A DNA stretch of 64,000 nt from the NCBI GenBank assembly GCA_015231175.1, contig JADGBZ010000007.1:1846-65845 (forward strand). The letters run 5' to 3'. Of this stretch, positions 1-33,119 are shown one piece after another; position 1 is the first letter of the stretch, and every line of letters begins with the position of its first letter. Made by a program: the position numbers and the translations under genes. Under the pieces are notes generated by a model. That model saw nothing but the letters and a program-made list of their open reading frames with translations, was not told where the DNA came from and ran no database searches. The DNA is from Magnetococcales bacterium (GTDB lineage: Bacteria > Pseudomonadota > Magnetococcia > Magnetococcales > DC0425bin3).

Positions 1-1
1 A

Positions 2-16732: not shown

Positions 16733-17392
16733 ATGACCATGGAATTGACCGAGTTGGAACAAGATGCCCTGAAAGAGTTTTTGAACATCGGGCTCGGTAT
16801 GGCAGCCGACTCCCTGAGCCAAATGGTTCATAACGAGATCCTCCTCTCCCTGCCGCAGCTGTCCGTGGTCTCCAAGGAGAGTGCCATCCAGCTGATTGAA
16901 CATCGCAGGGGGGATCGCCTGGTCGCTATTCGACAAAGTTTTTACGGGGAGTTGTCCGGTACGGCACTGCTGGTCTTTCCGGGAGCAAGAAGTCTGGAGT
17001 TGGTTCGTACCCTCCTGGGTGAAAATACTCCGTTGGAGTCCTTGACCGTTTTGGAACAGGAAACGCTCCTCGATATTGGCAATGTGATTCTTAACTCATT
17101 TTTGTCCAGCTTTACCCAAATGATCAATCTGGATTTTGAATTTGATCCTGCTGAACTGATCCATGCCGAGTGTGATGCTCTTCTCGATCTTTCGACGCAC
17201 AAAACGGTTTCTGGTGAGGTGAGAGGGAAGGATATCCAGGATGAACAGGTCTTTTTCTTGATGATGGATTTTAAAACTCATGAGGAGGAGGCAGTTAAAA
17301 ATTCCCTGCATGGCTATATTGCCATGCTTTTTACACAAAAAGATATGGAGAGATTAAAAAAAGAGTTGGAGAGGATCCTTTCTCAATATTGA
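16733..17392 (+). CDS. CheC-like CheY-P phosphatase family protein
   Basis: ORF track 16655..17392 trimmed to ATG 16733 (219 aa). First CheC active-site motif is intact (DALKEFLN followed by 22 residues then P). The second is degenerate (ETLLDIGN, x21, P). Confidence 0.75.
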   Translation: MTMELTELEQDALKEFLNIGLGMAADSLSQMVHNEILLSLPQLSVVSKESAIQLIEHRRGDRLVAIRQSFYGELSGTALLVFPGARSLELVRTLLGENTPLESLTVLEQETLLDIGNVILNSFLSSFTQMINLDFEFDPAELIHAECDALLDLSTHKTVSGEVRGKDIQDEQVFFLMMDFKTHEEEAVKNSLHGYIAMLFTQKDMERLKKELERILSQY

Positions 17393-17440
17393 TCTTCCGT
17401 GAATTTTGAACGCATGTGCTGACAACACAAGAACTGTGCC

Positions 17441-20302
17441 ATGGATACTGACCTGGATCTTGATATTTTTCGGCAAATTCTTGAAAAGAGCTCCTATGGT
17501 ATCATTGTTCTTGATCAGGTCTCCAAAGTTGTATTCTGGAATCGCTGGATGGAAAAAGCGTCACGCATTCCCGCCGCTGGTGTTGTCGGGCAGGTATTTA
17601 CAGACGTTTTTCCAGATTTGCTCGGTACCCGTATTGCGCGTGGCATTGAAAACGCCCTCTCCCAGGGATTGCCCACCACCCTCTCCCACAAGTTGACCCA
17701 TCGGCCCTTTCCTCTCTTTCCTCCTGCTGCCGGGCGGGAAGCGGACGAACGCATGAGCCAACACGTTCTGATCAGTGGCATACGCGCCCGGGACCGGACT
17801 TTTTATTGTACCATCCAGATCCAGGACATTACCGACACCGTCTCCCGTGAACACATATTGCGTGAACAGACCGGGGAGTTGCGTTTGGCCAAGGAGATGG
17901 CACAGAGTGCCAGCCAAGCAAAGGGGGACTTTCTGGCCAATATGAGTCATGAGATTCGCACCCCGATGAACGCCATCATTGGCATGACGCACCTGGCCAT
18001 GCAAACCGATCTGAATCCCAGGCAACTCGATTACCTGACCAAGATTCAATACTCCTCCCAGTCCCTGCTTGGCATCATCAACGATATTCTCGATTTTTCC
18101 AAAATCGAGGCGGGCAAACTGAAGATGGAGTCCGTCGCTTTCCACCTGGATGAGGTTTTGCACAACGTCTCCAACCTGATGACGATCAAAACCGATGAAC
18201 AGGGGCTGGAATTTTGTTTCCACGTTGCCAAGGATCTTCCTCTGGGTCTGGTGGGCGATCCGCTGCGCCTGGGGCAGGTTTTGGTCAATTTGACCAGCAA
18301 TGCCGTCAAGTTTACCCGTGCGGGAGAGATCATTCTGTCCGTCGAATTGGAGGCGTTGACCGAGGAGACGGTGACGATTCATTTCAGTGTCAAGGACAGC
18401 GGCATTGGCATGACTCCAGAACAGATCGCCGGGTTGTTCCGACCCTTTACCCAGGCTGACAGCTCAACGACCCGAAAATTTGGCGGTACGGGTCTTGGTC
18501 TTTCCATCTGCCGGCGCTTGGTTCAGATGATGGGAGGAAACATCTGGGTCGAGAGTCAATCTGGGCTTGGCAGCACCTTCCATTTCAACGCAACGTTTGG
18601 ACGCGCCAACAAGGATCGCCGCCGGTTTCGTTTGCCCGACGATCGATATGTGGGTTTGCGCGTTTTATTGGCGGATGACAATGCTGCGTCGCGCGAAATT
18701 CTGCAACATGCCTTGGAGTCTTTTTCCTTCAAGGTTACCCCTGTGGCTTCTGGTGCCGAGGCCATTGCCGAGTTGGAAAAAGCCCGACATGCCCGGCCCT
18801 TTGACATGGTGTTCGTGGATTGGAAAATGCCGGAGATGGATGGCATTCGCACCACGGAGGAGATCTCCAGACTTTTTCCCACCCAACGCATGCCCAAGGT
18901 GATCATGGTGACCGCCTACGGTCGGGAGGAGGTGCTGCATGCTGCCAAAAGTGTCCATCTCAATTCAATTTTGATCAAACCCGTCAGCCTCTCCCTGTTG
19001 TTCGACACCATTCTGGCCGCTTTGGGGGAAAATGAGCGTGCCATCACCAACCCGCTCCAGACGAGCAGAAATGAGTTGGTACCCCTCCAGTTGTCACCCC
19101 TCCAGCAGAAGATGCACCCCTTGCAGGGCGCCAAAATATTGCTGGTTGAGGATAACGAGATCAATCAGCAGGTGGCGGGGGAACTTCTCGACATGGTGGG
19201 GTTGCAGGTGCGTATCGCCTCCAACGGGCGGCAAAGCCTCATCGCCCTGGCAGAGGAGTCGTTTGATGCCGTGCTGATGGATATTCAAATGCCGGAGATG
19301 GATGGTTATGAAGCCACCCGCAAAATTCGGGAAAATCCAGCCTGGACAACTCTGCCCATCATCGCCATGACGGCCAATGCCCTGGCCGGGGATCGGGAAA
19401 AATGCCTGGCCGTGGGTATGAATGAACATATCGCCAAACCCATTGATCCCCGTGTTCTTTACAGTACCCTTACCCGTTGGATCAAGCCTCCGTTGCCAAC
19501 CGTTGAGCAACCGGTGGTGGCGCAGGCGCCGCGACCTGAACGAACCCAACCGGAACCTGTTGATCACCTGGTATCGCAAGCGACTGAATATAAAGGCATG
19601 GAACCGGATGTCACCCTTCAAGCAACTGAATATAAAAATATGGAGCCGGATGTCACTCTTTTGCCGGAATCCATTCCCGGTTTTGATCTTTCTGTTGGGC
19701 TGAAATATGTGGGTGGCAACAAGAAACTTTACCGGAAACTATTGCTGGATTTTCGGCGCACCCAATGGGATGCAGCCGAGAAGGTTCATCAGGGCATGAC
19801 ATCGGGAGAGATCCATGAGACGCAGCGCCGGGTCCACACCATCAAAGGTATTGCCGGCACACTGGGGGCTTTGGAGTTGCAGGATGTGGCAAAACATTTG
19901 GAAGTTTCCCTGAAGAACCATGACCGCGAACAATCCGCATCCTTGCTCAAGCCTTTCCAAAGTTCCTTGCAAGGTGTCATGCACGCTCTTGCCGTTTTGG
20001 ACTCTCAGGAAACTCCCGTCGATCCGCCCCATGTTGTGAAAGGATCCAAGGAAGGCCATCATGATGGGCCTCTTGATCGAAATGCTTTGGAGTCTGTCAC
20101 AACCCTTTGTCAACAATTGGCCGCATGGCTCGATGAGGGTGACGTTCGCGCCAAAAGCACTCTGGAACAACTCAACAAATGCCTTCCCCCGGCCCATAGG
20201 CAGGTGGTCGGCCTGGTGGCTGAAAAAATGGGCGATTATGATTTTGACGGTGCCAGGGACGCCTTGGTGCAATGGGCCTCATTCATGAAAATATCCCTCT
20301 GA
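17441..20302 (+). CDS. hybrid sensor histidine kinase (PAS-HisKA-HATPase-REC-REC-HPt)
   Basis: 953 aa. H-box [15 protein letters not shown]. ATPase boxes DSGIGM and GGTGLGLSI. Two receivers ([21 protein letters not shown]). C-terminal HPt [11 protein letters not shown]. Confidence 0.9.
19577..19660 (+). repeat. in-frame 42-bp tandem duplication (2 x 14 aa) in the REC2-HPt linker of the hybrid kinase
   Basis: [14 protein letters not shown] / [14 protein letters not shown]. 6 nt differences, three of them synonymous. Confidence 0.85.
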
Positions 20303-20351
20303 ATTGGATGGAATTCATGCATGTTTCTTTTCAGAAGCAGGGGAACTGTCT

Positions 20352-21275
20352 ATGAGTGAAAAACCCGTCATTCTGGTCGTTGACGATGAGAGCTTCAATA
20401 TTGATGTGTTGTTGAACCTCCTGGGGCAGGAATATACGATAACAATTGCCAAGAATGGCGAACAGGCACTCAAGAGGCTGACAGGCAAAACCATGCCGGA
20501 CCTGGTTCTTCTTGATATCATGATGCCGGGCATGGATGGTTACGAGGTGTGCCGGTGCATCAAGGAGGGGTTTCGCACCCGGCATGTGCCGGTCATTTTC
20601 ATCACCGCCTTGAGTGATGTCAGCGAAGAGACCGCAGGGTTCCAGGCCGGGGCTGTGGACTATATTACCAAGCCGTTTTGTCCAGCCGTGGTGACGGCCC
20701 GGGTGCGTACACACATCGAGTTGAAACGAAGCCGCGATCTCCTGGAAATCCTGGCCAAGGAAGATGGTTTGACCGGTATTGCCAATCGCAGGCGGTTCAA
20801 TGAGTTTCTTGAATTTGAATGGAGCCGGGCACAACGTAAACAGACATCCATCTCCCTGACCCTGATGGATGTCGATTTTTTTAAATTGTTCAACGATCAT
20901 TATGGCCATGCTGTTGGGGATGCCTGCCTGCGGCAGGTGGGGCATGCCCTGCGGCGCTCCATGCATCGGACGGTGGACTTGGTGGCGCGTTATGGCGGAG
21001 AAGAGTTTTGCTGTGTTTTGCCCGATACGGAAAGTCCGGGCGCCATGGGCGTGGCCAATCGACTGTTATGTGCCGTTCACGAACTGGCCATCCCGCACCA
21101 TCACTCCAAGGTCGCTGACCACGTCACCATGAGTCTGGGCGTTGCTTCGCTCGTTCCAGCGGCAGGCCAAGGTTCGGAAATACTCATTCATATGGCCGAT
21201 CAGGCGCTTTACAAGGCGAAAAATGGGGGAAGAAACCGGGTTGAGCTGGCGCGAACGGAAGATGCAGCTGACTAG
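20352..21275 (+). CDS. response regulator-diguanylate cyclase (REC-GGDEF)
   Basis: ORF track 20304..21275 trimmed to ATG 20352 (MSEKPVILVVDDE, 307 aa). Receiver LLDIMMPGMDG. GGDEF domain with GGEEF and an RTVD I-site 5 residues upstream. Confidence 0.9.
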   Translation: MSEKPVILVVDDESFNIDVLLNLLGQEYTITIAKNGEQALKRLTGKTMPDLVLLDIMMPGMDGYEVCRCIKEGFRTRHVPVIFITALSDVSEETAGFQAGAVDYITKPFCPAVVTARVRTHIELKRSRDLLEILAKEDGLTGIANRRRFNEFLEFEWSRAQRKQTSISLTLMDVDFFKLFNDHYGHAVGDACLRQVGHALRRSMHRTVDLVARYGGEEFCCVLPDTESPGAMGVANRLLCAVHELAIPHHHSKVADHVTMSLGVASLVPAAGQGSEILIHMADQALYKAKNGGRNRVELARTEDAAD

Positions 21276-21302
21276 AATGGCAAGAAGAGGTGTGTTCTGT
21301 CC

Positions 21303-23042
21303 ATGTTTGACGAAGAGACATTAAAAGTCCTGTTGGCGGAATTTCTTGCCGAAAATCGGGAATCCCTGGACCAGATCGAACGCGGCATCCTGGCCCTGGA
21401 AATGGATCCGGAAAACATGGAACTCCTGAACACCGTGTTTCGCCATATGCATACAGTCAAAGGCAATTGCCGGATGATGGAGTTTTCCCGGCTGGAAGAG
21501 TTGACCCATGCTGCGGAAAATCTTCTTGATCTGTTGCGCGAAAGGAAAATCACTGCGCATCAGGGGAATTGCGGTGTTCTCCTTGGTATCCTCGACACTG
21601 TTCGCCATACGTTGGATGGTATTGAAAGGAGCGGCAGTGAGGGCAATCCGGATTTTTCCCGCCCCATTCAAGCCCTGGAACGACTGACCCGGGGAGGTGA
21701 TTCCGGAAGTACCTCTCTCCTGGTTCCGGATTGTGGGCCGGGCGATTCGAGCGAACCCGCCGACTCTGCCTTGCCTTGTCGGGATGCCGAGCCCGAGCGG
21801 GAAAGATCGGGTGGGTCTGGCCTCCAAACCGTTCGGCTCCCCATTGAGAAACTGGATGCCCTGATGAACATGGTGGGGGAGTTGGGGTCTGCATTCAATC
21901 AGTTGCGATATGCCCTGCACCACGGGACAACAGCAGGTGACACGGTATTGGAAGGAATGGAAACCAGGATTCACCAGCTTCAGGACGAAGTTCTCAAATA
22001 CCGTTTGCAACCGATCGATACCATATGGGAACCCTTGCACCGCCTGGTTCGCGACTTGGCCATGGAGACAGGCAAGAAGGCCATCCTCGATATCCAGGGG
22101 GGAGAGACGGAAATGGACAGAAATGTCCTTTTGACTCTCAAGGAGTGCATGGGGCATTTGCTGCGCAACGCGATAGACCATGGCATCGAACCTCCCCATG
22201 AACGGGAAGTGGCGGGCAAGTCGATTTTGGGACATGTCAGGCTGCATGCGGAACAGAGGCATGGCCAAATTTTTATTGAGGTCTCTGACGATGGCCGGGG
22301 TCTTGATGTGGAGAAAATTCGGACCAAAGCCATCGAGTTGGGATTGCTCGATGCAGAGCAGGCCCGACACCACGCCGAGGAAGAGGTGTTCCGCGTCATT
22401 TTTGAACCAGGTTTTTCCACGGTCGGGCAGGTGAGCAAAATATCTGGACGTGGCACAGGCATGGATGTCGTCAAAAATGCCATGACCAGGCTGAACGGGA
22501 CCATTGCCATTTCCAGTCAACTGGGTCGGGGCACGCAGTTTCGTTTCCGGATACCGCAGACCATGGCCATCGTTCCCTCCCTGCTGCTTGGGAGTGGGGA
22601 TGGACAATATGCTGTTCCTCAAGCCAACATTGTCGAGTTGATCTCCTATTTTGGCGCGGACGTACAACGACACGTCGAGAAGAGATTGCACGGTTTCATG
22701 GTCCGGATACGTGATCGTTTGTTTCCCTTGCTTCCTCTTGACCAGATTCTGCATGCTCCTCTCCACGGTAACCACAGCCCACAAACTCCCGCTTTGCAAA
22801 CCCGGAGCGCATGTCATGTCGTTCTTTTGCGTGCCGAGGGAGGGGAGTTTGCCCTGGCTGTCGAGAAGATTGCCGATCCGATTGCCCTGGTGGTCAAGCC
22901 CATGCTGCGCCTGTTTTCCCACCTGACCATTTTATCTGGAACGGCTCTTCTGCCGGATGGTTCGGTGGCGTTTCTGTTGAATGTTGGAGAGTTGTGTCAG
23001 CTTCAGTCACACGTCCCACCCCCTGTCACCAGCCGGGGTTGA
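21303..23042 (+). CDS. cheA: chemotaxis-type histidine kinase CheA (short form)
   Basis: 579 aa. HPt HTVKGNCRMMEF. ATPase motifs HLLRNAIDHG, DDGRGLD, GRGTGMDVV. C-terminal CheW-like domain. Confidence 0.85.
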   Translation: MFDEETLKVLLAEFLAENRESLDQIERGILALEMDPENMELLNTVFRHMHTVKGNCRMMEFSRLEELTHAAENLLDLLRERKITAHQGNCGVLLGILDTVRHTLDGIERSGSEGNPDFSRPIQALERLTRGGDSGSTSLLVPDCGPGDSSEPADSALPCRDAEPERERSGGSGLQTVRLPIEKLDALMNMVGELGSAFNQLRYALHHGTTAGDTVLEGMETRIHQLQDEVLKYRLQPIDTIWEPLHRLVRDLAMETGKKAILDIQGGETEMDRNVLLTLKECMGHLLRNAIDHGIEPPHEREVAGKSILGHVRLHAEQRHGQIFIEVSDDGRGLDVEKIRTKAIELGLLDAEQARHHAEEEVFRVIFEPGFSTVGQVSKISGRGTGMDVVKNAMTRLNGTIAISSQLGRGTQFRFRIPQTMAIVPSLLLGSGDGQYAVPQANIVELISYFGADVQRHVEKRLHGFMVRIRDRLFPLLPLDQILHAPLHGNHSPQTPALQTRSACHVVLLRAEGGEFALAVEKIADPIALVVKPMLRLFSHLTILSGTALLPDGSVAFLLNVGELCQLQSHVPPPVTSRG

Positions 23043-23112
23043 CCCCTTTGCCTGGGTGAAGATCCGGTGGCGTTGAATATCCGAAATATTGTAAGCGGTT
23101 TGATGAGCGACG

Positions 23113-24696
23113 ATGCAAAACCAGCCCAACCTCTTGCTGGCAGAGTGTGACCCATCGTTGACACAGTGGTTTGATGAAACCCTGCGCACCGACGGGTATG
23201 CGGTGACCCATGCTTGTCATGGTGAGCAGGCTTGGTCACTGTTTTGTACCTCTTCTCCGGATTTACTCCTCCTGGGTGCCGGTATTTCCTTTAAGGAGGG
23301 TATGACACTCTGTTCCCGGATCAAGGCGACCGCGCCAAGTCGTTCCATGCCAATCCTTATGATTGTGGATCCCTCTCCGGAGGAGGGGTGGATTGAGCAG
23401 GCGATTCAGGCCGGGGTGACGGATTTTATCGCCAAGCCGGTCCATGGGGCCATTTTGCGCCACCGTTTACGCCAGTTGCTTGGCAGATCCCTGGCCATCG
23501 AGGAGGCGGTACGGCAGGCCAGGGATATGGCAGACGCAACCATGCGTGCCAAAACCGAATTTTTGGCCACCATGAGCCACGAGATCCGTATCCCCATGAA
23601 TGGCATTTTGGGTATGACGGAACTCCTCCAGGGGGGAACATTGCACCAGGAGGAGCGGCAACGGGTCGATTTTATAAGACAATCAGCACTGAATCTTCTG
23701 ACGATCGTCAATGACATGCTGGATTTTACCAGCATGGATGCCGGTAAGTTAACCTTGCAAAACAATCGGTTCGACTTACACAGACTGTTGGGGGATTTGC
23801 AGGCGACTTTCCAGGATTCTGCTCGTCAAAAAGGGTTGGAGTTGGGTGCCCGCCTCGGTCCGAACCTTCCTGCCACGCTGGTCCAGGATGCTGACCGGTT
23901 GCGACAGATTTTAACCAACCTCCTTTCCAATGCGATCAAATTTACACCGCCGGGAGGAAAAGTTGTTTTGGGAGCAGAACCGACGCGCCGGGAGAAGGAG
24001 TCCTTCTGGATCCGGTTCTTGGTGCAGGATACCGGCATTGGTATTCATCCTGACCAATTTTCGAGACTTTTCAAATTGTTCTCTCCGGGAGACGGCCCCA
24101 CGACAAGCAAATTAGGCGGTGCCGGGCTTGGCTTGATGATTACCAAGCGTCTGATCAAACTGATGGGAGGGTATATTCACGTTGACAGTTCCGTCAACAA
24201 GGGCACGCTTTTTACAGTTGATCTGCCCTTCCTGCACCCCGTGTTTTTGGAAGAGCCCGTCGCATGTGCTGCTCAGGGTGAAGGGCACTCCTTTCCACCG
24301 CATGTGCGGCTGTTGCTGGTCGACGATGACTCCGTCAATCGTGTCGTTGTGCGTGGCATTTTGAGACGGCACGGTTTTGCGATCGAAGAAGCCGTGAACG
24401 GCATGGAGGCCCTGGAAAAGCTGGTTTCCCACACCTATGACCTGGTGCTCATGGATTGTCAAATGCCCCACATGGATGGTTATACGGCCTGTCAGATGTT
24501 CAGAGAAAAAGAAAGCGGGCAACAACACAAGCGCCGCACGCCCATCATTGCTCTGACCGCCAACGCCATGCAGGGAGATCGGGAAAAATGCCTGGAAGCC
24601 GGCATGGATGACTATCTGGCAAAACCCATCCGGGGTGAGGATTTGAAAAGGCTGCTCAGTCATTGGCTTTTCGGCAATTCTTGCCGAAATTGTTGA
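23113..24696 (+). CDS. hybrid histidine kinase with N-terminal pseudo-receiver (REC*-HisKA-HATPase-REC)
   Basis: 527 aa. The N-terminal receiver-like fold lacks the acceptor Asp (DLLLLGAGIS) and the acidic pocket (LLLAECDPS) but keeps the conserved Lys (FIAKPV). H-box MSHEIRIPMNGILGM. DTGIGI and GGAGLGLMI. Canonical C-terminal receiver LMDCQMPHMDG. Confidence 0.85.
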   Translation: MQNQPNLLLAECDPSLTQWFDETLRTDGYAVTHACHGEQAWSLFCTSSPDLLLLGAGISFKEGMTLCSRIKATAPSRSMPILMIVDPSPEEGWIEQAIQAGVTDFIAKPVHGAILRHRLRQLLGRSLAIEEAVRQARDMADATMRAKTEFLATMSHEIRIPMNGILGMTELLQGGTLHQEERQRVDFIRQSALNLLTIVNDMLDFTSMDAGKLTLQNNRFDLHRLLGDLQATFQDSARQKGLELGARLGPNLPATLVQDADRLRQILTNLLSNAIKFTPPGGKVVLGAEPTRREKESFWIRFLVQDTGIGIHPDQFSRLFKLFSPGDGPTTSKLGGAGLGLMITKRLIKLMGGYIHVDSSVNKGTLFTVDLPFLHPVFLEEPVACAAQGEGHSFPPHVRLLLVDDDSVNRVVVRGILRRHGFAIEEAVNGMEALEKLVSHTYDLVLMDCQMPHMDGYTACQMFREKESGQQHKRRTPIIALTANAMQGDREKCLEAGMDDYLAKPIRGEDLKRLLSHWLFGNSCRNC

Positions 24697-26509
24697 TTAA
24701 AAGCAACGTGTCGGGGTCTGGGGGGCCGGCTCCGTCAAAAACCAATTCAAGCATGGTCAGGTCATCCGTCTGTGGGCCGTTTCTGTGCCGTTTTATTTTT
24801 TCCATGACTCCCTGAAAGGGTTGGTCTTCCAGAAGGAGTTCGCCCAGGGCCTGTTGCAGGTTGGCGCTGCCGAACATCTCGCCCTGGGCGTCTTGTGCCT
24901 CGCAGAACCCATCAGAAAAAGCATAGACCCTATCCATCGTATTTGTTGTGGTGCTCTGCTCAATCTTGGCCAGTTCATGTTCGGCGAGAATACCCAGAGG
25001 AAGATGGTTGGAAGGGTAGGAACGGTAGAACTCTTTCTGGTGGAAATGCAATATCTCGGGAATGCCACAGTTCCAGATCAGGAGGCGCCCTTGATTTGGA
25101 TCATGGGCCAGGAAAGCGGCAGCCAGGTACAACTGCCTGGGTAGTTTAAGGTGCAACTTGGCGTTGATCTCATTCAGAATGGCAGGTGGAGCGAAATTTT
25201 TTCGGGTCATGGTGTAAAAAATATCCGCGACCATGGGCCCTCCCAGGGCTGAGGGGAGGCCATGGCCTGTAAAGTCCCCCAGAAGGTAGTGTCGTGTTCC
25301 ATCTGGACGGGCGGCATACAGCAAAAAATCCCCGGCAATCCTCTCCAGGGGGACGGACAAAAGCGTTGCACCCGCATGGCTCATTTTGACGGACCGGTTG
25401 ATTTTTTCCAGCGTATGTTCGACGATTTCCCGTTCATAGGCCAGCTTGTCGCGCTGGTCGCGAACGACTTCCAGAATTTGGACCACTTTTTCCCGACTTT
25501 CCGTCAATGCGAGCATGGCCCGGCGGTTGCGCCGATAAAAATCAGTCATGAATCCAAGCATGAACAGGATTGCCACGCCAGAGACGCTCATGGTCAAAAG
25601 ACGCTGGGAACGGGCCTCTCCTTCTCGGGTCTTGAGGATTGTATGCAGTTTGTCGTGCAGTTGTCTATGACATACAATATTGTTTTCAATTACATAGGTA
25701 ACTGCCAGAAAAAAATACAGGGGATCTGTCTTGACGGTCTTCTCGGACATCAATGTATTGCTGAAGTCAAGAACAGCCAGTAAGTTGGGCTCCAACTCCC
25801 GGTCAAAGCATCCCGACACCGATTGCAGAAAAGGAACCTCTTCCCGGATAAAGCGATGAATCCCTCTTGTTCTTTCCAGATCGCGGTTGACATGCCCCAT
25901 GACTTCGCCAAACCGAATCTGGTCAGTCGGACCGAACTCCCCGGAAGCAAGTATGATACTCACCACAGCGCGCAGACGGCCCATGGATTCACCCAAATTT
26001 GGGTAGTACCTCAGAAAGATTTCCTTTAAATTATAGACCGTCACGTCCACGTCGGTTGACAGCCGAGAACGAAAAGCCAAATTTCTGATGATATCATTGA
26101 CACGGTTGATCATCTGGGTATGGATATCGAAAAGAAGTTTCGGATCGGATGTGCCATGGTCCGGGCTAAAATCGCGCCGAATGGTCTGTTTCGTATCTTG
26201 AAATTCATCTGGAAGAAGAGGGGTGTTGCTGTCCAGTTTATCTTCGAGTTCTTTCCAGTAATGTTTTAAATTATCGCTTGATTCTTTTGTAGATTCCTGT
26301 AAATTGATTTGAGAAAGACCACGCACTCTCTGCATAACGACGACAATGTTGTATAACTCATTGATGCTCATGAGCCCGGAAATTTCTTCTGTCGCTAAGA
26401 TTATTTTCCGACTCTCTTCAGAGATGATGTGGTGAAGCGTGACGATAACCAAAAGTGTTGGTATAAACAAAGCGGTCAAATACCGAACAAGAGATATTTT
26501 CTGATTCAT
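24656..26509 (-). CDS. membrane sensor PP2C-type (SpoIIE/RsbU-like) serine phosphatase
   Basis: ORF track 24656..26635. ATG 26509 (MNQKISLVRYL...) gives 617 aa. An upstream ATG at 26569 is possible. Two hydrophobic segments flank a ~300-aa region. C-terminal SpoIIE-type motifs GDFTGHGLPSAL, VYAFSDGF, TDDLTMLELVF. The 3' end overlaps the convergent kinase gene by 41 nt. Confidence 0.8.
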   Translation of the reverse strand: MNQKISLVRYLTALFIPTLLVIVTLHHIISEESRKIILATEEISGLMSINELYNIVVVMQRVRGLSQINLQESTKESSDNLKHYWKELEDKLDSNTPLLPDEFQDTKQTIRRDFSPDHGTSDPKLLFDIHTQMINRVNDIIRNLAFRSRLSTDVDVTVYNLKEIFLRYYPNLGESMGRLRAVVSIILASGEFGPTDQIRFGEVMGHVNRDLERTRGIHRFIREEVPFLQSVSGCFDRELEPNLLAVLDFSNTLMSEKTVKTDPLYFFLAVTYVIENNIVCHRQLHDKLHTILKTREGEARSQRLLTMSVSGVAILFMLGFMTDFYRRNRRAMLALTESREKVVQILEVVRDQRDKLAYEREIVEHTLEKINRSVKMSHAGATLLSVPLERIAGDFLLYAARPDGTRHYLLGDFTGHGLPSALGGPMVADIFYTMTRKNFAPPAILNEINAKLHLKLPRQLYLAAAFLAHDPNQGRLLIWNCGIPEILHFHQKEFYRSYPSNHLPLGILAEHELAKIEQSTTTNTMDRVYAFSDGFCEAQDAQGEMFGSANLQQALGELLLEDQPFQGVMEKIKRHRNGPQTDDLTMLELVFDGAGPPDPDTLLLINNFGKNCRKAND

Positions 26510-26591
26510 TTCTATCTTTATTTTCTGTGCCCGACGTGCTCGAAAAGGTATCCCTGCACCGCCCCCCATTACAGAACCCTGTACACCCACT

Positions 26592-26604
26592 CCCCCCCCC
26601 CCCC
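26592..26604. repeat. C13 (G13 on minus strand) homopolymer in a divergent intergenic region
   Basis: Direct count: 13 consecutive C at 26592-26604, between the phosphatase gene (minus) and the HAMP-REC-HPt gene (plus). Confidence 0.95.
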
Positions 26605-26686
26605 GGACTATATTTTTTCCTGAATTCACTGTCAACGAACTGAGTGTCCAGTCAACTCCTGACCCGTAAGATGGATCGGAATCATC

Positions 26687-27922
26687 ATGTTTTTACGATC
26701 GAAAGTGATCTTTGGCATGACTGCTTTGCAAGGGGTCGTTCTGGTGGCCTTGTTGTTTGGCCGTGAGGGGTTTCATACATCGGGTGGAGTTTTGAGCATT
26801 CTTGTTTTTGCAGGTTTGTTCCCCTTATTCAGTGTGTTCGAGGCATGGCATCTGAGTCAACGCCTGCACCAAAGCCTCCAGAGCATCCATGCGGGATTCC
26901 AGGCTTTGGGAGAGGGGCGTCTGGGCTACGAAATATCTTTGCACCAGCATACCCTTTGCAGGGAAACCGTGCAGGCTTTCAATCGGATGAGTCGGCAGTT
27001 GCAGGAAAACATCGCCAAGCGGGATGTGGCGGAAGGAGATGCCCTGGCAGGAGAAACCTCTGTCGCCGTCACAACCGTTGATCAGGCCACACCAAAAGGT
27101 TCTTCCCTGCCAGCCTCCCTGGAACTGGCGCCCGATCTTTCGTCGGACATGCGGATCCTGTTGGTGGAAGACTCCCCGGAAATGCAGATCTTCACGAGGG
27201 AAATATTGACCTCGGCGGGTTTTGTGGTGGGTGTGGCCAACAATGGTCGTGAGGCCTTGGAAGCCTTGGCATGTGCTCCATTTGACCTCGTTCTCATGGA
27301 TTTGGGCATGCCCGAAATGGATGGCTGGACCGCCGTGCGGCAAATTCGTCAACTCACTTCACGGATGCGGGATGTGCCCATCATCATTTTGACGGGTAAC
27401 ACCTTTCCGGGTGTACGTGAAGCGTGCATGGCCATTGGCGCCCAGGGATATCTCACCAAACCTGTGCAACATGATCTCCTTTTGGGCAGCATCCGGGCCT
27501 TATTGGCCAACCCGGGCCGGGTTGTTGGGTCTTACGGCCCGGTTGCTCTTCCTGAGGCAGATTCGGTGATCACCGCTCTGCCTTTGTTGGACGCTGCCGT
27601 TCTGCAACAAATGGCACGGGATACGGCGCCAGAGTTGGTGCCGCGCATGGTCAGGATTTTCATCCAGGAGGCGGAAAAACGTCGGGAACGTATCTTGCTC
27701 GATGCAACAGGCGGTGACGTGCAGGCTATGCGTTTGGAGATACACGCCTTGAAAAGCAGTGCGGGTACCTTTGGCGCCAAAGCCCTCTACCACGCTTCAA
27801 CGGAGGCCGACCTCGCCGGCAAGAGTGGCGACATGCCGACACTTTTGCGCTGGGGCCAGGCGTTGCCGAATCTCATCCAACGCACCATCCGTGCCTACCA
27901 GATCCATTTTTCGGAGTCGTGA
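26687..27922 (+). CDS. membrane-anchored HAMP-REC-HPt phosphorelay protein
   Basis: 411 aa. Two N-terminal TM helices joined by a loop of only ~8 residues. HAMP-like segment, receiver (ILLVEDSPE, LVLMDLGMPEMDG, YLTKPV), C-terminal HPt (HALKSSAGTFGA). Confidence 0.8.
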   Translation: MFLRSKVIFGMTALQGVVLVALLFGREGFHTSGGVLSILVFAGLFPLFSVFEAWHLSQRLHQSLQSIHAGFQALGEGRLGYEISLHQHTLCRETVQAFNRMSRQLQENIAKRDVAEGDALAGETSVAVTTVDQATPKGSSLPASLELAPDLSSDMRILLVEDSPEMQIFTREILTSAGFVVGVANNGREALEALACAPFDLVLMDLGMPEMDGWTAVRQIRQLTSRMRDVPIIILTGNTFPGVREACMAIGAQGYLTKPVQHDLLLGSIRALLANPGRVVGSYGPVALPEADSVITALPLLDAAVLQQMARDTAPELVPRMVRIFIQEAEKRRERILLDATGGDVQAMRLEIHALKSSAGTFGAKALYHASTEADLAGKSGDMPTLLRWGQALPNLIQRTIRAYQIHFSES

Positions 27923-28161: not shown

Positions 28162-30753
28162 TCAAACTGAAGAGTCGCTCTGCTCGAAGCGAACGGTGTT
28201 GAGCAATTTGGGCTTTGCTGCCACCCTGCTTTCGGAGACCGGATGAAATTTGGGGAAACTGGTGGAATCGTCAACGGAATCCTCTTTTTTGACGCCCATA
28301 CCCAAATCAGCGGATATGATACGCAGATCCAGGGCATCGTCATCCTCCTTCTCAAGCGAATCTTCATCCGCATTTTGAGGAGAATCCCCTTCCGGGCCGG
28401 GTTTATCCATCTGGTAGTGCCCCAGGCCAGCCTCTTCAGACAAGGAACTCAGATCCAGGTCACCATCGTCATCAGACTCTTCGTTCCCTTCACCGTTGGA
28501 TGCAGGGGTGACTTTGGGTGAGTCAATATCCTCCTTTTCCTGGCCCACCCGAGATTTATTGGATGGTGTGGACCTCAGAGAGCTGAACACGAAAGGGATG
28601 CTCTCCAGCGCATTGCCAGAGCCTTCTCCCAATCCCGATTTGAGCACAACCGATTCATCCAGGGATTCGGAGGTCGAAAAGGCGATCGAACCATAGGATG
28701 CTGTAACAGAGACGCCAGTTTTATGAGTCCCTAATTCTGTCGTCTCTTGATCAGGGGTCTCTATATCGGAGATCTCTGATTTACCTTTATGTTGAAATTC
28801 CGCTGTGGAGACCGTGTCGGCTCCGTCCAGCCTGGGCATGATTGCAAGTATCGTGGCATCTTCACTGTGTCCCGCGACCGACTCATCAATTTGTATGTTC
28901 GGCTGATCATCTCCCATGTCCGCTGGTGACACCTCTTGCTGATCCTCTGGCTTGTCGGCCTCTTCCAGATTTCCCATGCGGCGCAGGGCTTCCAGGGCCT
29001 GCCGGCCTTCCAGGGTCAAACGGGCAGAGAGAGGGTCAGTCGGCACATCGGGTCCAGAGAGAGATTCCTCGTGCGCTGCGTGGGGAGCAGAGTCCGCGCC
29101 ATCCGGCTCCATGCGAGGGACGCCCGTGTCCGGGCGGATAGGAGAATCAACATGTTGCGAGGCTGATGTGGCCAAACTCCCGGCAGCCACCGTAGCCACA
29201 ATCGCTGCGACCGGGGCAGCCGGAACCTCTGAGCCGTCCACGACCGGCTCCTGGCGTTCCTTGTTGCCCCTGGACTCTGCTGACTTACCCTTGGTGTCGT
29301 TCTTCCTTTCTGCGGGAACAACAATCTCAAGTATGCTGTCAGGCTCTTCCTGGCTTTTGCGACGTTGGCGAATCCGCCAACCGAGATAGGCCACCATGGC
29401 GATGGCCACACCACCCAGACCAGCATCCTTGACCCAATCAGCCAACTCTTCCACGGAGGAGGCTTGTTCCAGAAACCGCTTGGAAAGGGACTGGGACTGA
29501 TTTTTCAGCACGGCAAGTTGGGTTTCCAAAACTTTGCGTTGCTTTTCGCTCTCCTTGACGCGCTGGTTTGCCTTGGCAAGCTCTGCCTGGATGTTCTCCA
29601 GGGCGACGCTCTTTGGCGCACCGCCTGCTGGAGGTGAGCCACCGGTTGACGGCTCCGCAGCAACATCTCCCCGGTTGGCTGATGCGTTGCTGTCCTGTGA
29701 AGATCCAGCGGTTTGCAGCTGTTCCATACTTTTCGGTTGGGTGGATGAAACCTTCTTGGGAAGCGAAGCCTTCCTCTGGCTCTCGCGCAACCCGGTCCTC
29801 TCTCCGACTGAATGGGGTTGGCCACCTGCCAGATCAGCCTGCTGACTGCTGTGGGATCTGCCCCTGTCACCCCAGGAACCCTTCGTGGCATCCTTTCCTG
29901 AAACTAAGTCGGAAGGTCCATCCCGGCCCATCGCTCCAGAGTTGGTGACACCCTCAGGGGTGGATTTCCAGCTGTTCCGGTGGGACTGGACGATCCGCCA
30001 GGCCTCGGATGGAGAGACGCGGCTCATGTCGCCCACGGAGGGGAGAGAGAGGGTGACGCCAGTGACCAGGCCGAGGATGTTGTCCTTGTAAAATTTGTCG
30101 CGATTGGAGTGCCACAACCCGACCATCACCTGACTTGGGGTCAGGCCACTCCCCTCCCCAACGATCTTGGCGACATCGGCCAAACTTTTTCCTTTGGGTA
30201 CGGGCCCAAAGGTGGTTTCGCGCGGCAGGGTATGATGCTGGAAAGCGGCCTGGGTCGTGGATGCCGGACCATGCGCAGCCGGGGGCAACTTGACAAAGCG
30301 ATGGCTGTCGAACTCCCGGGCGCCCTGCTGGAAATCTTTCTGGGTGGGAGATTCGTGTGAAGAGGAGAGCAAAATCGGGTAGTTGCGAACCAAGGCTCCC
30401 GTGCCTCGCGAGGCCTTGATCAGGACATTGAAAAAAGGCTCCTGAACGGGGCCATCGCTCTCCAGTAACACAGCGGAATCCGTTGCATCTTTTTGCACCT
30501 TGATCCGCAAATTTCCCACCATGCTGGAGCGGAAGAGGTGGACGCGACGATAATCGTTGATCCCCCCCAGGGTGATGTCGCCATCGTCAAAGGTTTCCAG
30601 TGGATGCAAAGTCAGTGGGATGCGAGCCAGGAAGGGTTCCCCGATATGGCTCTTGACTTGGATCTCACCCAGGGAGAAAGCGTTGGCTGTCTGTGGCATC
30701 CCGAGCAGCAAAGCCAACCCAAGCCACGACTTTCCGAGTAACCGGTACTTCAT
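28162..30753 (-). CDS. FimV/HubP-like polar hub protein (FimV N-terminal domain, LysM-like, TM, acidic C-terminal half)
   Basis: ORF track 28162..30855 trimmed to ATG 30753 (signal peptide MKYRLLGKSWLGLALLLGMPQTANA, 863 aa). FimV-type N-terminal motif SLGEIQVKSHIGEPFLARIPL. LysM-like stretch (SLADVAKIVGEGSGLTPSQVMVGLWHSNRDKF). TM VAIAMVAYLGWRIRQRR. Long Asp/Glu/Ser-rich tail. Confidence 0.7.
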   Translation of the reverse strand: MKYRLLGKSWLGLALLLGMPQTANAFSLGEIQVKSHIGEPFLARIPLTLHPLETFDDGDITLGGINDYRRVHLFRSSMVGNLRIKVQKDATDSAVLLESDGPVQEPFFNVLIKASRGTGALVRNYPILLSSSHESPTQKDFQQGAREFDSHRFVKLPPAAHGPASTTQAAFQHHTLPRETTFGPVPKGKSLADVAKIVGEGSGLTPSQVMVGLWHSNRDKFYKDNILGLVTGVTLSLPSVGDMSRVSPSEAWRIVQSHRNSWKSTPEGVTNSGAMGRDGPSDLVSGKDATKGSWGDRGRSHSSQQADLAGGQPHSVGERTGLRESQRKASLPKKVSSTQPKSMEQLQTAGSSQDSNASANRGDVAAEPSTGGSPPAGGAPKSVALENIQAELAKANQRVKESEKQRKVLETQLAVLKNQSQSLSKRFLEQASSVEELADWVKDAGLGGVAIAMVAYLGWRIRQRRKSQEEPDSILEIVVPAERKNDTKGKSAESRGNKERQEPVVDGSEVPAAPVAAIVATVAAGSLATSASQHVDSPIRPDTGVPRMEPDGADSAPHAAHEESLSGPDVPTDPLSARLTLEGRQALEALRRMGNLEEADKPEDQQEVSPADMGDDQPNIQIDESVAGHSEDATILAIMPRLDGADTVSTAEFQHKGKSEISDIETPDQETTELGTHKTGVSVTASYGSIAFSTSESLDESVVLKSGLGEGSGNALESIPFVFSSLRSTPSNKSRVGQEKEDIDSPKVTPASNGEGNEESDDDGDLDLSSLSEEAGLGHYQMDKPGPEGDSPQNADEDSLEKEDDDALDLRIISADLGMGVKKEDSVDDSTSFPKFHPVSESRVAAKPKLLNTVRFEQSDSSV

Positions 30754-30851
30754 GATCACCATCCCGCATGCGATTCCCCCGCTCTCACAACGAGAGACAA
30801 GGCAGAAATCAGGATAAGCAATTTTTGTACCAATAAAATTTCGTGACTCCG

Positions 30852-31790
30852 TCAACCATCCTGAGTGATCCGCTCGACCAACTCCCGGAGGGCCTTTTCA
30901 GCGTGACTGTTCTCCACCTGGCAGGTACCGGCGTTGCGATGGCCGCCGCCGCCATATTGGAGAGCCAACTCACCGACGTTGGTGTTGGACGTCCGGTTCA
31001 GAATGGACTTGCCTATGGCAAAAACCGTATTTTGCTTCTTGACACCCCACAGCACATGGATGGAGATGTTGGTTTCGGGGTACAGGGCATAAATCATGAA
31101 CCGGTTGCCGGCATAAATGGGATCCTGGTCACGCAGATCCAGGACCACCAGATTTTTATGGACGGTCGAACAGGCCCTCAACTGGGCCTTGAATGTCTCT
31201 TCCTGTTGAAAATAGAGATCCACCCGTTCCTTGATGTCGGGCAACTCCATGATCTCGGAGATATCCATGGTACGGCAGTTGTCGATCAACTGCATCATGA
31301 GCTGGTAGTTGGAGATGCGGAATTCCCGAAACCGGCCCAGACCCGTCCGGGCGTCCATGAGAAAGTTCATCAAAACCCACCCGGTGGGGTGAAGTATCTC
31401 TTCTTTGCTGAACAGGGCAGCGTCGCCTTTGTCCACAGCGGCCATCATTTCTGGAGAGACATTGGGCAGAGCATCCGGGCCTCCATAATACTTGTAGACC
31501 ACCCGGGCGGCTGAAGGGGCGTGTGGATCGATGACATGATTCTCCGGTTTTTTGTCACCTCGGCGAATGGTCTCGCTGGCGTGGTGATCGAAGGCGATAT
31601 GCACCCCCTCCACGTAGGGAAGGTTGGTGGTGATATCGTTGCCTGTGATTTCGATCTTGCCGTCTTGCATGTCTTTTGGATGGACAAATTTGATCTCTTC
31701 GATCATGTCCAACTCTTTAAGGATGACGGCACACACCAGGCCATCGAAATCGCTACGGGTTACCAGTCGAAATTTTCTTTTCTCGGCCAC
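30852..31790 (-). CDS. DHH/DHHA1 family phosphoesterase (NrnA/exopolyphosphatase-like)
   Basis: ORF track 30852..31838 (TTG). GTG 31790 has GGGAGA upstream. Motifs DFDGLV, AFDHH, C-terminal GGGGH. Confidence 0.75.
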   Translation of the reverse strand: MAEKRKFRLVTRSDFDGLVCAVILKELDMIEEIKFVHPKDMQDGKIEITGNDITTNLPYVEGVHIAFDHHASETIRRGDKKPENHVIDPHAPSAARVVYKYYGGPDALPNVSPEMMAAVDKGDAALFSKEEILHPTGWVLMNFLMDARTGLGRFREFRISNYQLMMQLIDNCRTMDISEIMELPDIKERVDLYFQQEETFKAQLRACSTVHKNLVVLDLRDQDPIYAGNRFMIYALYPETNISIHVLWGVKKQNTVFAIGKSILNRTSNTNVGELALQYGGGGHRNAGTCQVENSHAEKALRELVERITQDG

Positions 31791-31920
31791 AGCGGAATCT
31801 CCCAGTCGAAAAAACAGGCGCGTTTTCGGTCTTGCCAAGCGATGCCATTCGGGTCAAGAACCCCCAAACACCCCATCCGCCACGCAGGATATCTGGAAAG
31901 TCTCCGTGGGAAAAGGGAAT

Positions 31921-33111
31921 TCATTGAACGCCCCCTCCCAGAAAGGGCAGGAGTTTGTCATAGGCCTCGGCCACGGACCACTCCTGGAGGCGGGCAATGT
32001 TGGCCAGATCGTCGTACTCAACCCGGCGCACTCCTCCTGCCTCGACCAGACCCAAGGGCCCCCAAGGGGTGGAGACCAGGCGTTTGTTGCGACGCCAAAC
32101 CCACCTTTGCATGGTTTGTATCCGAACACCAAGGGTGGTGGATTGCTGCAACATCAAGTGCGCCAACGCATCGGCAGCCGCAGGCTGCACCACAACTTCA
32201 ATGCGTACCGCTGGCCGCCCCTTCTTCATGGTCATGGGAATGAGTCCCACATCCAAGGCGCCGGCTTCAAACAATTTTTCCCACAACATGCCGTACCACT
32301 CCGGATTCATGTCATCCACATGGGCCGACAAAACCGCCACCTGTTCCTGAAAGGGATCCATATCCGTTTTGCCGGGTATGGCAGCCGCTGCCGGTACTTC
32401 GGCCAAAATGCGCAGGGCATTGGCCCGTTCGGGGAGTTCGCGTTGTCCCAACCCGGTGCCTGTTCGGTCGATTCGGGTCAATCCACCCGCTGCTGCAAGG
32501 CTGTGAACCAGGTGGGCCAGAATGGCTGTTCCCGTTGGCGTGGCCGTTTCACCGGTGACATGCTCCGGCTGGAGGGGGATCCGATATTTTTGCACGATCG
32601 CCACCACCGCCGGGGCAGGCACCGGCATTACGCCGTGTTGGCAGCGGACACTGCCCGAACCACACTGCAATGGACCGGTGCTCACCCCGGTCACGCCCAG
32701 ATGTTCAATGGCCCAGGCTGCGCCGCAGATATCCAGAAGGGCATCCATGCCTCCGACTTCGTGAAAATGCACCTCTTCCGGGGGGAGACCGTGAACCGCT
32801 CCCTCCGCTTCGGCCAGGATGGTAAAGATGGCCTCGGCCCGTTGCGCTACGGCTGTCGTGAAACCTGCCCCCCGGATCAATGTCAGAATTTCCGCCAAGT
32901 GGCGGTGATGATGTTCATCCGGCACCTGAACATCGACCCGTATCCCACGCATTCCCCCGCGTCGCGCCACTTCCGCCGCGAGGGTCCAGGCCGGCAACGC
33001 AAGCCCCCGGAGCGCGTGGATCATCGCTTCCCGGTCCACCCCCAGATCCAAACAGGCGCCCAAAAACATGTCGCCGGAGATTCCGGCATCCAATTGCACA
33101 TGCCATTTCAT
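31921..33111 (-). CDS. larC: LarC family nickel insertion protein (DUF111)
   Basis: ORF track 31921..33273 trimmed to ATG 33111 (MKWHVQLDAGISGDMFLGACLDLG, 396 aa). Conserved HFHEVGGMDALLDI and the MKKGRP motif. Confidence 0.8.
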   Translation of the reverse strand: MKWHVQLDAGISGDMFLGACLDLGVDREAMIHALRGLALPAWTLAAEVARRGGMRGIRVDVQVPDEHHHRHLAEILTLIRGAGFTTAVAQRAEAIFTILAEAEGAVHGLPPEEVHFHEVGGMDALLDICGAAWAIEHLGVTGVSTGPLQCGSGSVRCQHGVMPVPAPAVVAIVQKYRIPLQPEHVTGETATPTGTAILAHLVHSLAAAGGLTRIDRTGTGLGQRELPERANALRILAEVPAAAAIPGKTDMDPFQEQVAVLSAHVDDMNPEWYGMLWEKLFEAGALDVGLIPMTMKKGRPAVRIEVVVQPAAADALAHLMLQQSTTLGVRIQTMQRWVWRRNKRLVSTPWGPLGLVEAGGVRRVEYDDLANIARLQEWSVAEAYDKLLPFLGGGVQ

Positions 33112-33119
33112 GGTTTGAC

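Follow-up and report, generated by a model that had tools for sequence, protein, structure and literature searches.

A CheC-type phosphatase, a hybrid kinase, a diguanylate cyclase and a CheA in one seven-gene block of a Magnetococcales bacterium: a possible reduced and rewired chemotaxis-type operon

Seven consecutive signalling genes lie at 16.7-27.9 kb of a 64-kb stretch of contig JADGBZ010000007.1 from a Magnetococcales bacterium; this whole stretch of 64,000 nucleotides is called the window here. Open reading frame (ORF) calling placed the genes where an earlier inspection of the bare letters (the sequence-only reading) had located them. Domains were assigned with Pfam and NCBIfam profiles, and residue motifs were read from the sequence or from alignments. 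The genes, termed g1 to g7, encode a CheC-type phosphatase homolog, a soluble hybrid kinase, a REC-GGDEF diguanylate cyclase, a CheA, a second kinase with a pseudo-receiver, a membrane SpoIIE/PP2C phosphatase and a membrane-anchored REC-Hpt protein. g1 to g5 are all on the same strand, with intergenic gaps of 49, 1-49, 27 and 70 nt, g6 is convergent to g5 on the minus strand and g7 is divergent from g6. The block holds three kinase cores, three Hpt domains, five canonical receivers plus one pseudo-receiver and two phosphatase types, the same counts as in the sequence-only reading. The receiver alignment revealed the complete D/E-D...D...T...K set in five receivers, and catalytic and phospho-acceptor residues are intact across the block, except for the second CheC site and the N-terminal receiver of g5. 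The diguanylate cyclase g3 is the sole evident output of the block, a statement of the sequence-only reading that holds for enzymatic outputs.

The first gene, g1 (16739-17392, plus strand), encodes 217 aa in its annotated form; its ORF opens at 16655 and a start at 16733 had been proposed before. When g1 was compared with Pfam, the CheC match was sub-threshold. NCBIfam CheC_Thtogales aligned with g1 end to end (E = 1.7e-18), a profile of 25 g1 homologs matched Thermotoga maritima CheC 1XKR (E = 4e-22), and an AlphaFold2 (AF2) model of g1 with a pLDDT of 80 gave TM-scores of 0.77/0.81 against 1XKR in Foldseek. The top Foldseek matches of the model were T. maritima CheC 1XKR/2F9Z (E = 5e-15), followed by FliY and CheX. 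Since the NCBIfam match, the family profile and the AF2/Foldseek comparison all agree, the CheC-fold homology of g1 is solid despite the sub-threshold Pfam match. The first active site, D37-x3-E41-x2-N44-x22-P67, is intact and invariant in the 25 homologs. The second site is degenerate, as the sequence-only reading had described it, and reads E-x3-D-x2-N, with Asp for the catalytic Glu and Ala at the x22 Pro position. This degeneracy is common to g1 and 16 other aligned homologs, whereas both sites are kept in eight more distant CheCs; shared by 17 aligned homologs, it seems to be old and stable. In CheX, one competent active site suffices. With the class F1 CheY-P phosphatase CheC of T. maritima and Bacillus subtilis, g1 shares the fold (TM 0.77-0.81) and the first motif D-x3-E-x2-N-x22-P. 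It differs from these proteins in sequence (about 20% identity), in its degenerate second site (Glu to Asp, Pro to Ala) and in its surroundings, with no CheD or CheY nearby and a hybrid kinase and a diguanylate cyclase as gene partners.

The hybrid kinase g2 (17441-20302, plus strand) has the architecture PAS_4-HisKA(H170)-HATPase_c-REC(D460)-REC(D614)-Hpt(H799), assigned by Pfam and by key residues, and its orthologs in strain FCR-1 and in magnetotactic Nitrospirota are 49-51% identical. The next gene, g3 (20352-21275, plus strand), encodes a REC(D71)-GGDEF protein of 307 aa when read from the ATG at 20352; the ORF opens with a TTG at 20304. The GGDEF domain was recognized by Pfam with E = 9e-50, and GGEEF stands at residue 231, the I-site RTVD (RxxD) five residues upstream at 222 and DVDFFKLFND at 189. 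The receiver residues are D27/D28, D71, T101 and K123. Judged from sequence, g3 has all parts of a response-regulator-type diguanylate cyclase, namely active site, metal segment, I-site and receiver. Its best NCBIfam matches were the PleD family and DgcR, each below its own cut-off, and its orthologs in FCR-1 and YQR-1 are 54-60% identical. Pfam and residue checks bore out the architectures that the sequence-only reading had given for g2, g3, g5 and g6.

In g4 (21303-23042, plus strand; NCBIfam CheA_Halo, E = 1e-106) the Hpt, dimerisation, HATPase_c and CheW-like domains are each above the Pfam cut-off, and the protein is arranged as P1(H50)-P3-P4-P5 without a P2 domain. His50 lies in HTVKG, the N box HLLRNA at 285, the G1 box DDGRG at 329 and the G2 box GRGTG at 382. 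The profile checks thus supported both calls on which the sequence-only reading depended, CheA by Pfam and NCBIfam and CheC by NCBIfam with Pfam sub-threshold. It had described g4 as a short CheA with its own CheW-like domain; the domain content stands, but "short" is no distinction, because a core of these four domains is the minimum architecture in a survey of CheA proteins (PMC10782961) and g4 is in this respect ordinary. Within the sub-clade of g4, the P5 domain is 65-71% and the P4 domain 78-84% identical. Such conservation of P5 leads one to expect a CheW or receptor partner encoded elsewhere, and g4 probably still binds a partner of this kind.

Pfam scans of the other ORFs of the window detected no MCPsignal, CheB, CheR or CheD domain, and the only CheW domain is the one inside CheA. 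When the window was searched by tblastn with the CheW, methyl-accepting chemotaxis protein (MCP), CheR, CheD and CheB of relatives, only weak generic REC matches were obtained. The relatives carry a family-type CheY (with the sequence stretch LIVDDSSLARMM...), and six copies of it likewise gave only generic receiver similarity in the window. A complete chemosensory set, MCP, CheW and CheY alongside CheA, is hence not encoded in the 64-kb window, which upholds the sequence-only reading that no MCP, stand-alone CheW or CheY and no CheB/CheR are present. Its label "MCP-less" is true of this neighbourhood, but the conserved P5 argues for a CheW/receptor partner elsewhere. A fusion of the missing CheY into g5 or g3 was considered and rejected, as no match to the family CheY beyond generic REC similarity was found and FCR-1 has both CheY and a REC-HK-REC protein.

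The second kinase, g5 (23113-24696, plus strand), was assigned by Pfam and by the REC alignment as pseudoREC-HisKA(H156)-HATPase_c-REC(D448) without an Hpt domain. Its N-terminal receiver (23113-23500) reads E/C/G/D/K and is a pseudo-receiver, with Asp13, Asp57 and Thr87 replaced by C, G and D. The g5 ortholog of Magnetococcus sp. DMHC-1 (locus L020, 12038-12500) has a canonical N-terminal receiver, so the pseudo-receiver of g5 would be a recent, lineage-specific decay. The REC-kinases of FCR-1 and "Ca. Magnetomonas" were rejected as orthologs of g5, since their N-terminal receivers are only 20-28% identical to it. The receiver of these REC-kinases (FCR-1, L021 16647-18158; Ca. Magnetomonas, L017 8643-9734) is about 50% identical to the REC-GGDEF receiver, and this likeness suggests that one phosphodonor may serve two outputs there.

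The membrane-anchored protein g7 (26687-27922, plus strand) is REC(D205)-Hpt(H353) by Pfam, with two N-terminal hydrophobic segments; its DMHC-1 ortholog is 51% identical. The sequence-only reading had called it a membrane HAMP-REC-Hpt protein. REC, Hpt and the two hydrophobic segments were confirmed, but HAMP is a partial Pfam match of 15 residues (profile positions 39-53, E = 0.0077, 17 bits against a cut-off of 25). This weak HAMP-like stretch directly follows the second transmembrane segment, the position expected of a HAMP domain.

The membrane phosphatase g6 (24656-26509, minus strand) has a SpoIIE domain with E = 5.5e-31 in Pfam, covering profile positions 2-189 of 192. Its ORF opens at 26635, and the true start is probably Met43 at 26509, because homology to DMHC-1 begins there and a promoter-like site spans the upstream TTG. 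This sigma-70-like near-consensus site (26635-26607, minus strand; TTGACA, 17 nt, TATAGT; 11/12 matches) includes the opening TTG of the g6 ORF; in a promoter and terminator scan of the window the counts were not above those of shuffles, and the site was used as a hint for the g6 start only. The public annotation of g6 (571 aa) begins later than Met43 and loses the first transmembrane segment. Hydropathy showed hydrophobic segments at residues 46-73 and 345-364, and the domain between them (residues 74-344, window 25604-26416, minus strand, about 270 aa) is, as the topology suggests, probably periplasmic. This interior domain was modelled as all-helical with an AF2 pLDDT of 82, built on a five-sequence alignment, and its sole probable fold match was the NIT domain of NasR (4AKK; TMq 0.59-0.63, E = 3.6e-3); Pfam NIT gave no match on g6 even at E <= 1. 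A nitrate or nitrite input to g6 is thus no more than hinted at by the model. Full-length homologs of g6 comprise only five Magnetococcales proteins. The PP2C domains nearest to that of g6 are found in proteins in which REC and PP2C are fused, some of them with an HsbR-like REC-PP2C-kinase architecture. In the metagenomic locus L106 (554-5790), a REC-PP2C response regulator is encoded directly upstream of CheY, CheC, PAS and hybrid kinase; between its PP2C domain and that of g6 the identity is 35%, and the locus is a second, independent association of PP2C with the CheY-CheC-PAS-hybrid kinase core.

All seven genes were found again in DMHC-1, where the order is RluC, RNase E, CheC-like, hybrid kinase, REC-GGDEF, CheA, REC-HK-REC, PP2C on the minus strand, REC-Hpt and then genes of a type II secretion system (T2SS). 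The neighbourhood proposed by the sequence-only reading is hence conserved, at 51-80% identity per gene and in the same order, and the block is no chance juxtaposition. This comparison also bears on the view that the block is a non-functional remnant, drifting after the loss of CheY, CheW, MCP and adaptation genes. CheY is lost indeed, the second CheC site is degenerate, the N-terminal receiver of g5 is newly so, and fragmented versions occur elsewhere (a GGDEF fragment in L025, split REC and GGDEF in L017). However, all seven genes are present as full-length ORFs that retain their catalytic and phospho-acceptor residues, their order and sequence are conserved to the extent just described, and the degeneracy of the second CheC site is an old and stable trait of the 17 aligned homologs. 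We therefore regard decay as highly improbable.

Beyond DMHC-1, a shared core of CheA, CheY, CheC-like phosphatase, Hpt-bearing hybrid kinase and REC-GGDEF was detected in other Magnetococcales and in magnetotactic Nitrospirota, whereas g5 to g7 are confined to the sub-lineage of the window. Between the window and the Nitrospirota proteins, identity is 63-64% for the CheC-like protein, 51% for the hybrid kinase, 60% for the diguanylate cyclase and 48% for CheA. Nearly all CheA homologs with a named source at 43-74% identity come from Magnetococcales or magnetotactic Nitrospirota (Ca. Magnetobacterium, Magnetominusculus, Magnetomonas and YQR-1), and those of other taxa start at about 40%. CheC-like homologs of 51-84% identity come from the same taxa and from one metagenome-assembled genome of the Azospirillaceae; the next ones drop to 42% or less.

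The composition of these loci varies. FCR-1 has CheA, CheY, CheC-like, hybrid kinase with Hpt, REC-GGDEF and REC-HK-REC, with CheD about 10 kb further. After the FCR-1 cluster (L021 18205-21704), an 886-aa protein with REC, metallo-beta-lactamase (Apyc1-like) and cyclic-nucleotide-binding domains is encoded, next to it a 216-aa protein without a family match and then CheD, at which the locus stops. In YQR-1, a CheW gene lies upstream of CheA, CheY, CheC-like, hybrid kinase with Hpt and two REC-GGDEF genes. The closed genome of Ca. Magnetomonas holds the same core, broken by a restriction-modification gene and with an MCP at the end. There, a type ISP restriction-modification gene stands between the hybrid kinase and separate REC (124 aa) and GGDEF (173 aa) genes (L017 16245-20264); the pair looks like a split REC-GGDEF, and the MCP after it is of the dCache_3 type. 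In Magnetococcus marinus MC-1, the parts are distributed over two loci, L015 with CheA, CheY, a paralogous CheC and a PAS-HK-REC kinase without Hpt, and L026 with REC-GGDEF, CheC-like (Mmc1_3527) and Hpt-bearing hybrid kinase but without CheA. Downstream of the hybrid kinase in L026 (13452-20678), about 7 kb hold no called genes and short ORFs only, which could be RNA genes or non-coding DNA. Ca. Magnetobacterium has an orphan CheA and, apart from it, a CheY-CheC pair. L025 carries a GGDEF fragment.

This scatter is part of the case for separate, merely co-located pathways, in which CheA and the CheC-like protein would act in taxis with CheY, CheW and MCPs encoded elsewhere, g2-g3 would be an ordinary two-component system and g5 to g7 would belong to further unrelated systems, adjacency reflecting co-regulation or history only. 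The scattered occurrence of CheA alone, of the CheY-CheC pair and of the cyclase-CheC-kinase trio in MC-1 and Ca. Magnetobacterium is in line with it, as are the conserved P5 domain of g4, the dedicated and highly conserved CheY and CheC that follow CheA in most relatives, and the restriction of g5 to g7 to one sub-lineage. It does not account well for a CheC-like gene that stays beside the hybrid kinase and the diguanylate cyclase even where CheA and CheY are missing (L026), for a five-gene order maintained across two phyla, or for the operon-like packing of g1 to g5 with CheA between cyclase and kinase. Separate pathways are thus possible, although we doubt this explanation.

In a neighbour-joining tree of CheA, calculated without support values, the Nitrospirota sequences form one clade, sister to the sub-clade of the window and nested in Magnetococcales. 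Because of this nesting, the tree points to a horizontal transfer of the core between the two magnetotactic groups, in an uncertain direction.

For the deeper ancestry, metagenomes were scanned with the CheC alignment and 80 loci were kept, with 33-40% identity to the CheC-like protein of the window; none of the 80 reached the 51-84% typical of the Magnetococcales and Nitrospirota homologs. One gene order recurs in at least 14 of the longer loci: 2-3 CheW segments, CheB, CheR, receiver, CheA, CheY, CheC and PAS-HK. In these, CheY is of the family type (40-55% identical) and the PAS domain of the PAS-HK matches that of g2. Pfam analysis of one such operon, L080, revealed an MCP in which the signalling domain matched twice, a 506-aa triple-CheW protein, a 730-aa four-domain CheA, a PAS-PAS-HK-REC kinase and a second CheC. 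The MCP of these outgroup operons is soluble (maximum hydropathy 1.26) and internally duplicated, with the EAARAG..GRGFAVV hairpin in both halves, and a two-signalling-domain MCP was found in ten loci (L045, L066, L068, L075, L080, L085, L091, L094, L100 and L103). Neither the two-signalling-domain receptor nor the triple CheW occurs in the window or in the loci of Magnetococcales and Nitrospirota. CheA of the outgroup operons is only 30-35% identical to g4.

A triple-domain CheW has been reported as characteristic of chemosensory class F9 (10.1101/2022.05.07.491037), and in Vibrio cholerae the cytoplasmic F9 arrays are built by DosM, a receptor with a double signalling domain (10.64898/2026.05.11.724241). 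As the distant operons carry both of these reported hallmarks, the ancestral context of the core appears to be F9-like, a statement about shared gene order and not about class membership. With V. cholerae cluster I as the F9 representative, the distant relatives of the window core share the soluble two-signalling-domain receptor and the triple-domain CheW, while the window itself has no receptor, CheW, CheB or CheR. V. cholerae cluster I is not known to include a CheC, a PAS-HK or a diguanylate cyclase.

The sequence-only reading had argued that the cluster would be an ordinary che operon split by rearrangement if relatives carried it with an adjacent MCP/CheW set. This was found in part. In relatives of 30-40% identity, the core CheA-CheY-CheC-PAS-HK stands in complete che operons. 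Intermediate relatives keep CheY and sometimes CheW (YQR-1), CheV (L027), MCP (Magnetomonas) or CheD (FCR-1). Locus L027 holds CheV, CheY, CheC, hybrid kinase with Hpt and REC-GGDEF, with a short CheA and a GGDEF-EAL protein on the opposite strand. In L023 from Thermodesulfobacteriota, whose CheA is 40% identical, an MCPsignal fragment at the contig end is followed by CheR, CheD, CheB and CheA; divergent from this group are CheY, a CheX-like gene and PAS-GGDEF. The window block therefore looks like a reduced and rewired derivative of a che operon that lost CheY and gained three signalling genes.

Which kinase feeds the diguanylate cyclase is indicated by gene co-occurrence. REC-GGDEF is present wherever the neighbouring kinase has an Hpt domain (the window, L020, L021, L022, L017, L026 and L027) and missing where the kinase lacks it (L015 and L080-type operons). 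The trio of REC-GGDEF, CheC-like and hybrid kinase persists without CheA in L026 of MC-1. Because REC-GGDEF tracks the Hpt-bearing kinase even in the absence of CheA, we favour hybrid kinase, Hpt and diguanylate cyclase as the main line of signalling.

The same pattern bears on a receptor-free, Wsp-like pathway with CheA as the main kinase of REC-GGDEF and with PAS and HAMP modules in place of MCPs, which is close to what the sequence-only reading had envisaged. CheA lies directly downstream of REC-GGDEF with a gap of 27 nt, no MCP or CheW is present in the window, and systems that combine a CheA-family kinase with diguanylate cyclase output do exist (Wsp; Halomonas cluster 2, PMC5907407). However, the cyclase co-occurs with the Hpt-bearing hybrid kinase and not with CheA, there is no known mechanism for driving CheA through P5 by a PAS or HAMP protein, and the conserved P5, together with CheW, CheV or MCP genes beside the cluster in relatives, points to conventional coupling. 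In addition, HAMP is barely detectable in g7, and the absence of MCP and CheW covers 64 kb of the genome only. A pathway of this kind is quite unlikely in our view. Neither the Wsp-type logic from CheA to REC-GGDEF nor the replacement of the receptor layer by PAS and HAMP modules could thus be upheld; the locus appears instead as the descendant of a reduced che operon, with CheW, CheV and MCP genes near the clusters of its relatives.

We give an even chance to the reading that the block is a cytoplasmic multi-kinase phosphorelay that sets the level of cyclic di-GMP (c-di-GMP) and that evolved by reduction and rewiring of an F9-like chemotaxis-type operon. In such a relay, g2 would autophosphorylate and pass the phosphate from His170 to Asp460 and/or Asp614, on to His799 of the Hpt domain and finally to Asp71 of g3. 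Phosphorylation of g3 would activate c-di-GMP synthesis, with the RxxD I-site limiting it by feedback. CheA g4 would feed in a second, receptor-coupled signal, with the P5 domain probably docking to CheW/MCP encoded elsewhere and the P1 domain donating phosphate to a receiver of the cluster, the ancestral CheY being gone from the locus. With one competent site, g1 would speed up receiver dephosphorylation, of CheY ancestrally and here presumably of the g3 receiver or a g2 receiver. The products of g5, a kinase with receiver but no Hpt, and of g7, a membrane REC-Hpt protein, may form an added branch or a phosphate sink. g6 could be a membrane sensor phosphatase, from a clade usually fused to receivers, with a NIT-like domain that is probably periplasmic.

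Several observations weigh against this relay. Every phosphotransfer arrow is drawn from the adjacency of genes and their co-occurrence. By tblastn the window has no family CheY, so that the receivers of the diguanylate cyclase and of the hybrid kinase are candidate targets only of CheA-P1 and of the CheC-like protein, and CheY, CheW or MCP may be encoded elsewhere in the genome, beyond the 64 kb. g6 is convergent to the other genes, PP2C chemistry acts on phospho-Ser/Thr and is unfit for a His-Asp relay, and a STAS-type substrate partner for g6 was not found in the window. Finally, g4 is only 30-35% identical to the CheAs of the F9-like operons.

Among described systems, the Wsp system of Pseudomonas (class ACF, with WspR as output) shares with the window a CheA-family kinase gene beside a REC-GGDEF gene with RxxD I-site and c-di-GMP as the evident output. 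Wsp has an MCP (WspA), CheWs, CheR, CheB and a CheA-REC hybrid. The window differs in that MCP, CheW, CheR and CheB are absent from it and its CheA has no receiver, REC-GGDEF alone being shared. It adds a CheC-type phosphatase, a pair of HisKA kinases and further Hpt domains, and the co-occurrence pattern suggests that the Hpt of the hybrid kinase serves the cyclase. For MC-1, the supplement of PMC10782961, as far as it was available, gives ACF-class CheAs of 734 and 878 aa; the MC-1 homolog of g4 has 584 aa and is distinct from both. Halomonas cluster 2, which has been reported in Magnetococcales (PMC5907407), was considered and set aside as a different system based on an ACF-type CheA-REC.

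The Dif system of Myxococcus xanthus (DifE as CheA, DifD as CheY and DifG as CheC homolog, controlling exopolysaccharide) likewise combines a CheC-type phosphatase with a chemosensory output other than motility (PMC4671073), and Dif-like clusters occur in Geobacter (PMC2577667). Unlike the window, Dif has the MCP DifA, the CheW DifC and the CheY DifD, and its cluster contains no hybrid kinase, Hpt relay or diguanylate cyclase. In Che3 of Rhodospirillum centenum, which governs cyst formation, a second HisKA-type kinase with a receiver (CheS3) accompanies CheA3 in a che-type cluster and phosphate flows between its kinases (PMC3868531). Che3 differs from the window by retaining MCP, CheW, CheB and CheR and by its output via CheY3. 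In the window, CheA could not phosphorylate the N-terminal receiver of g5 in a comparable way, because its Asp is lost.

Taken by themselves, g2 and g3 look like pairs of a hybrid kinase and a REC-GGDEF protein, such as Hk1-Rrp1 of Borrelia or the PleD/DgcR type. Unlike such pairs, they are flanked by a CheC-type phosphatase and a CheA, with which they are co-inherited across phyla. Literature searches on the cluster, on the locus tags of MC-1 and on links between c-di-GMP and che genes in magnetotactic bacteria retrieved no paper describing the cluster, in agreement with the sequence-only reading that the combination is not a described pathway. Each ingredient has a precedent; the combination, the five-gene core and its seven-gene derivative are without description in the papers found.

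The gene that follows g7 (28162-30855, minus strand, convergent with g7) belongs to the FimV/HubP family, according to FimV_N PF25800 (E = 9e-20) and to TIGR03505, whose score of 44.3 bits is just above the cut-off of 43.45. The sequence-only reading had pointed to this polar hub gene as the immediate neighbour; the gene is real, but the adjacency is not conserved, as T2SS genes take its place in DMHC-1, and it probably stands outside the signalling system. The other ORFs of the window have mainly housekeeping annotations (RluC-like, RNase E/G, a Clp-family AAA+ ATPase, RecN, NAD kinase, LarC, RlmL and others), and one OmpR-type two-component pair is also present. An Rfam scan of the window found nothing, and thus no c-di-GMP riboswitch. 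A protein of the DUF520/YajQ family, of which some members have been reported to bind c-di-GMP, is encoded at 63290-63847 (plus strand), at a distance of 35 kb from the cyclase.

Two further proteins encoded in the window are unrelated to the block, a Ser/Thr protein kinase with a fused FGE-sulfatase domain (44567-46585, minus strand) and a GapR-like DNA-binding protein (53095-53577, plus strand). A 556-aa ORF without a family match (31624-33294, plus strand) runs antisense to the LarC nickel-insertion gene (31921-33273, minus strand, E = 3e-119) and is almost certainly spurious. ORFs without a Pfam match (660, 531, 261, 335, 228, 261 and 575 aa) were observed at 1-3585, 8525-9310, 46706-49627 and 51367-53094, and the region at 8-10 kb has a lower G+C content (0.51) and a strong GC skew. 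Membership in a magnetosome island, considered because one Nitrospirota homolog stems from an early single-cell study, was rejected, as no mam-type genes were found within 10 kb in any locus or in the window.

With respect to named sources, the core module is almost confined to magnetotactic Magnetococcales and Nitrospirota, at 48-64% identity and outside the magnetosome gene clusters. A more far-reaching proposal, which we put forward as speculative and rather unlikely, is that the core was exchanged among magnetotactic lineages for their shared lifestyle, for example to connect a redox or oxygen signal at the PAS domain via c-di-GMP to motility or positioning in gradients, and that in the lineage of the window CheC was also retargeted from CheY to the receiver of the diguanylate cyclase or the hybrid kinase. 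We know of no CheC protein for which receivers of this class have been shown to be substrates, and if the CheC-like protein does act on a receiver other than CheY, the substrate range of this phosphatase family would widen.

If the block is indeed a reduced and rewired che operon, it is an example of a full chemotaxis-type system taken apart and reassembled into a controller of a second messenger, with receptor, adaptor and adaptation genes detached, CheY lost and the CheC-type phosphatase retained beside a hybrid kinase and a diguanylate cyclase during the rewiring. The operons of the distant relatives would tie the pair of PAS-kinase and CheC to F9-type cytoplasmic arrays. The core is common to magnetotactic Magnetococcales and Nitrospirota, where the signalling behind magneto-aerotaxis is poorly understood, and its genes are accessible in two cultivable strains, MC-1 (Mmc1_3527 and two neighbours, CheA ABK44786) and FCR-1.

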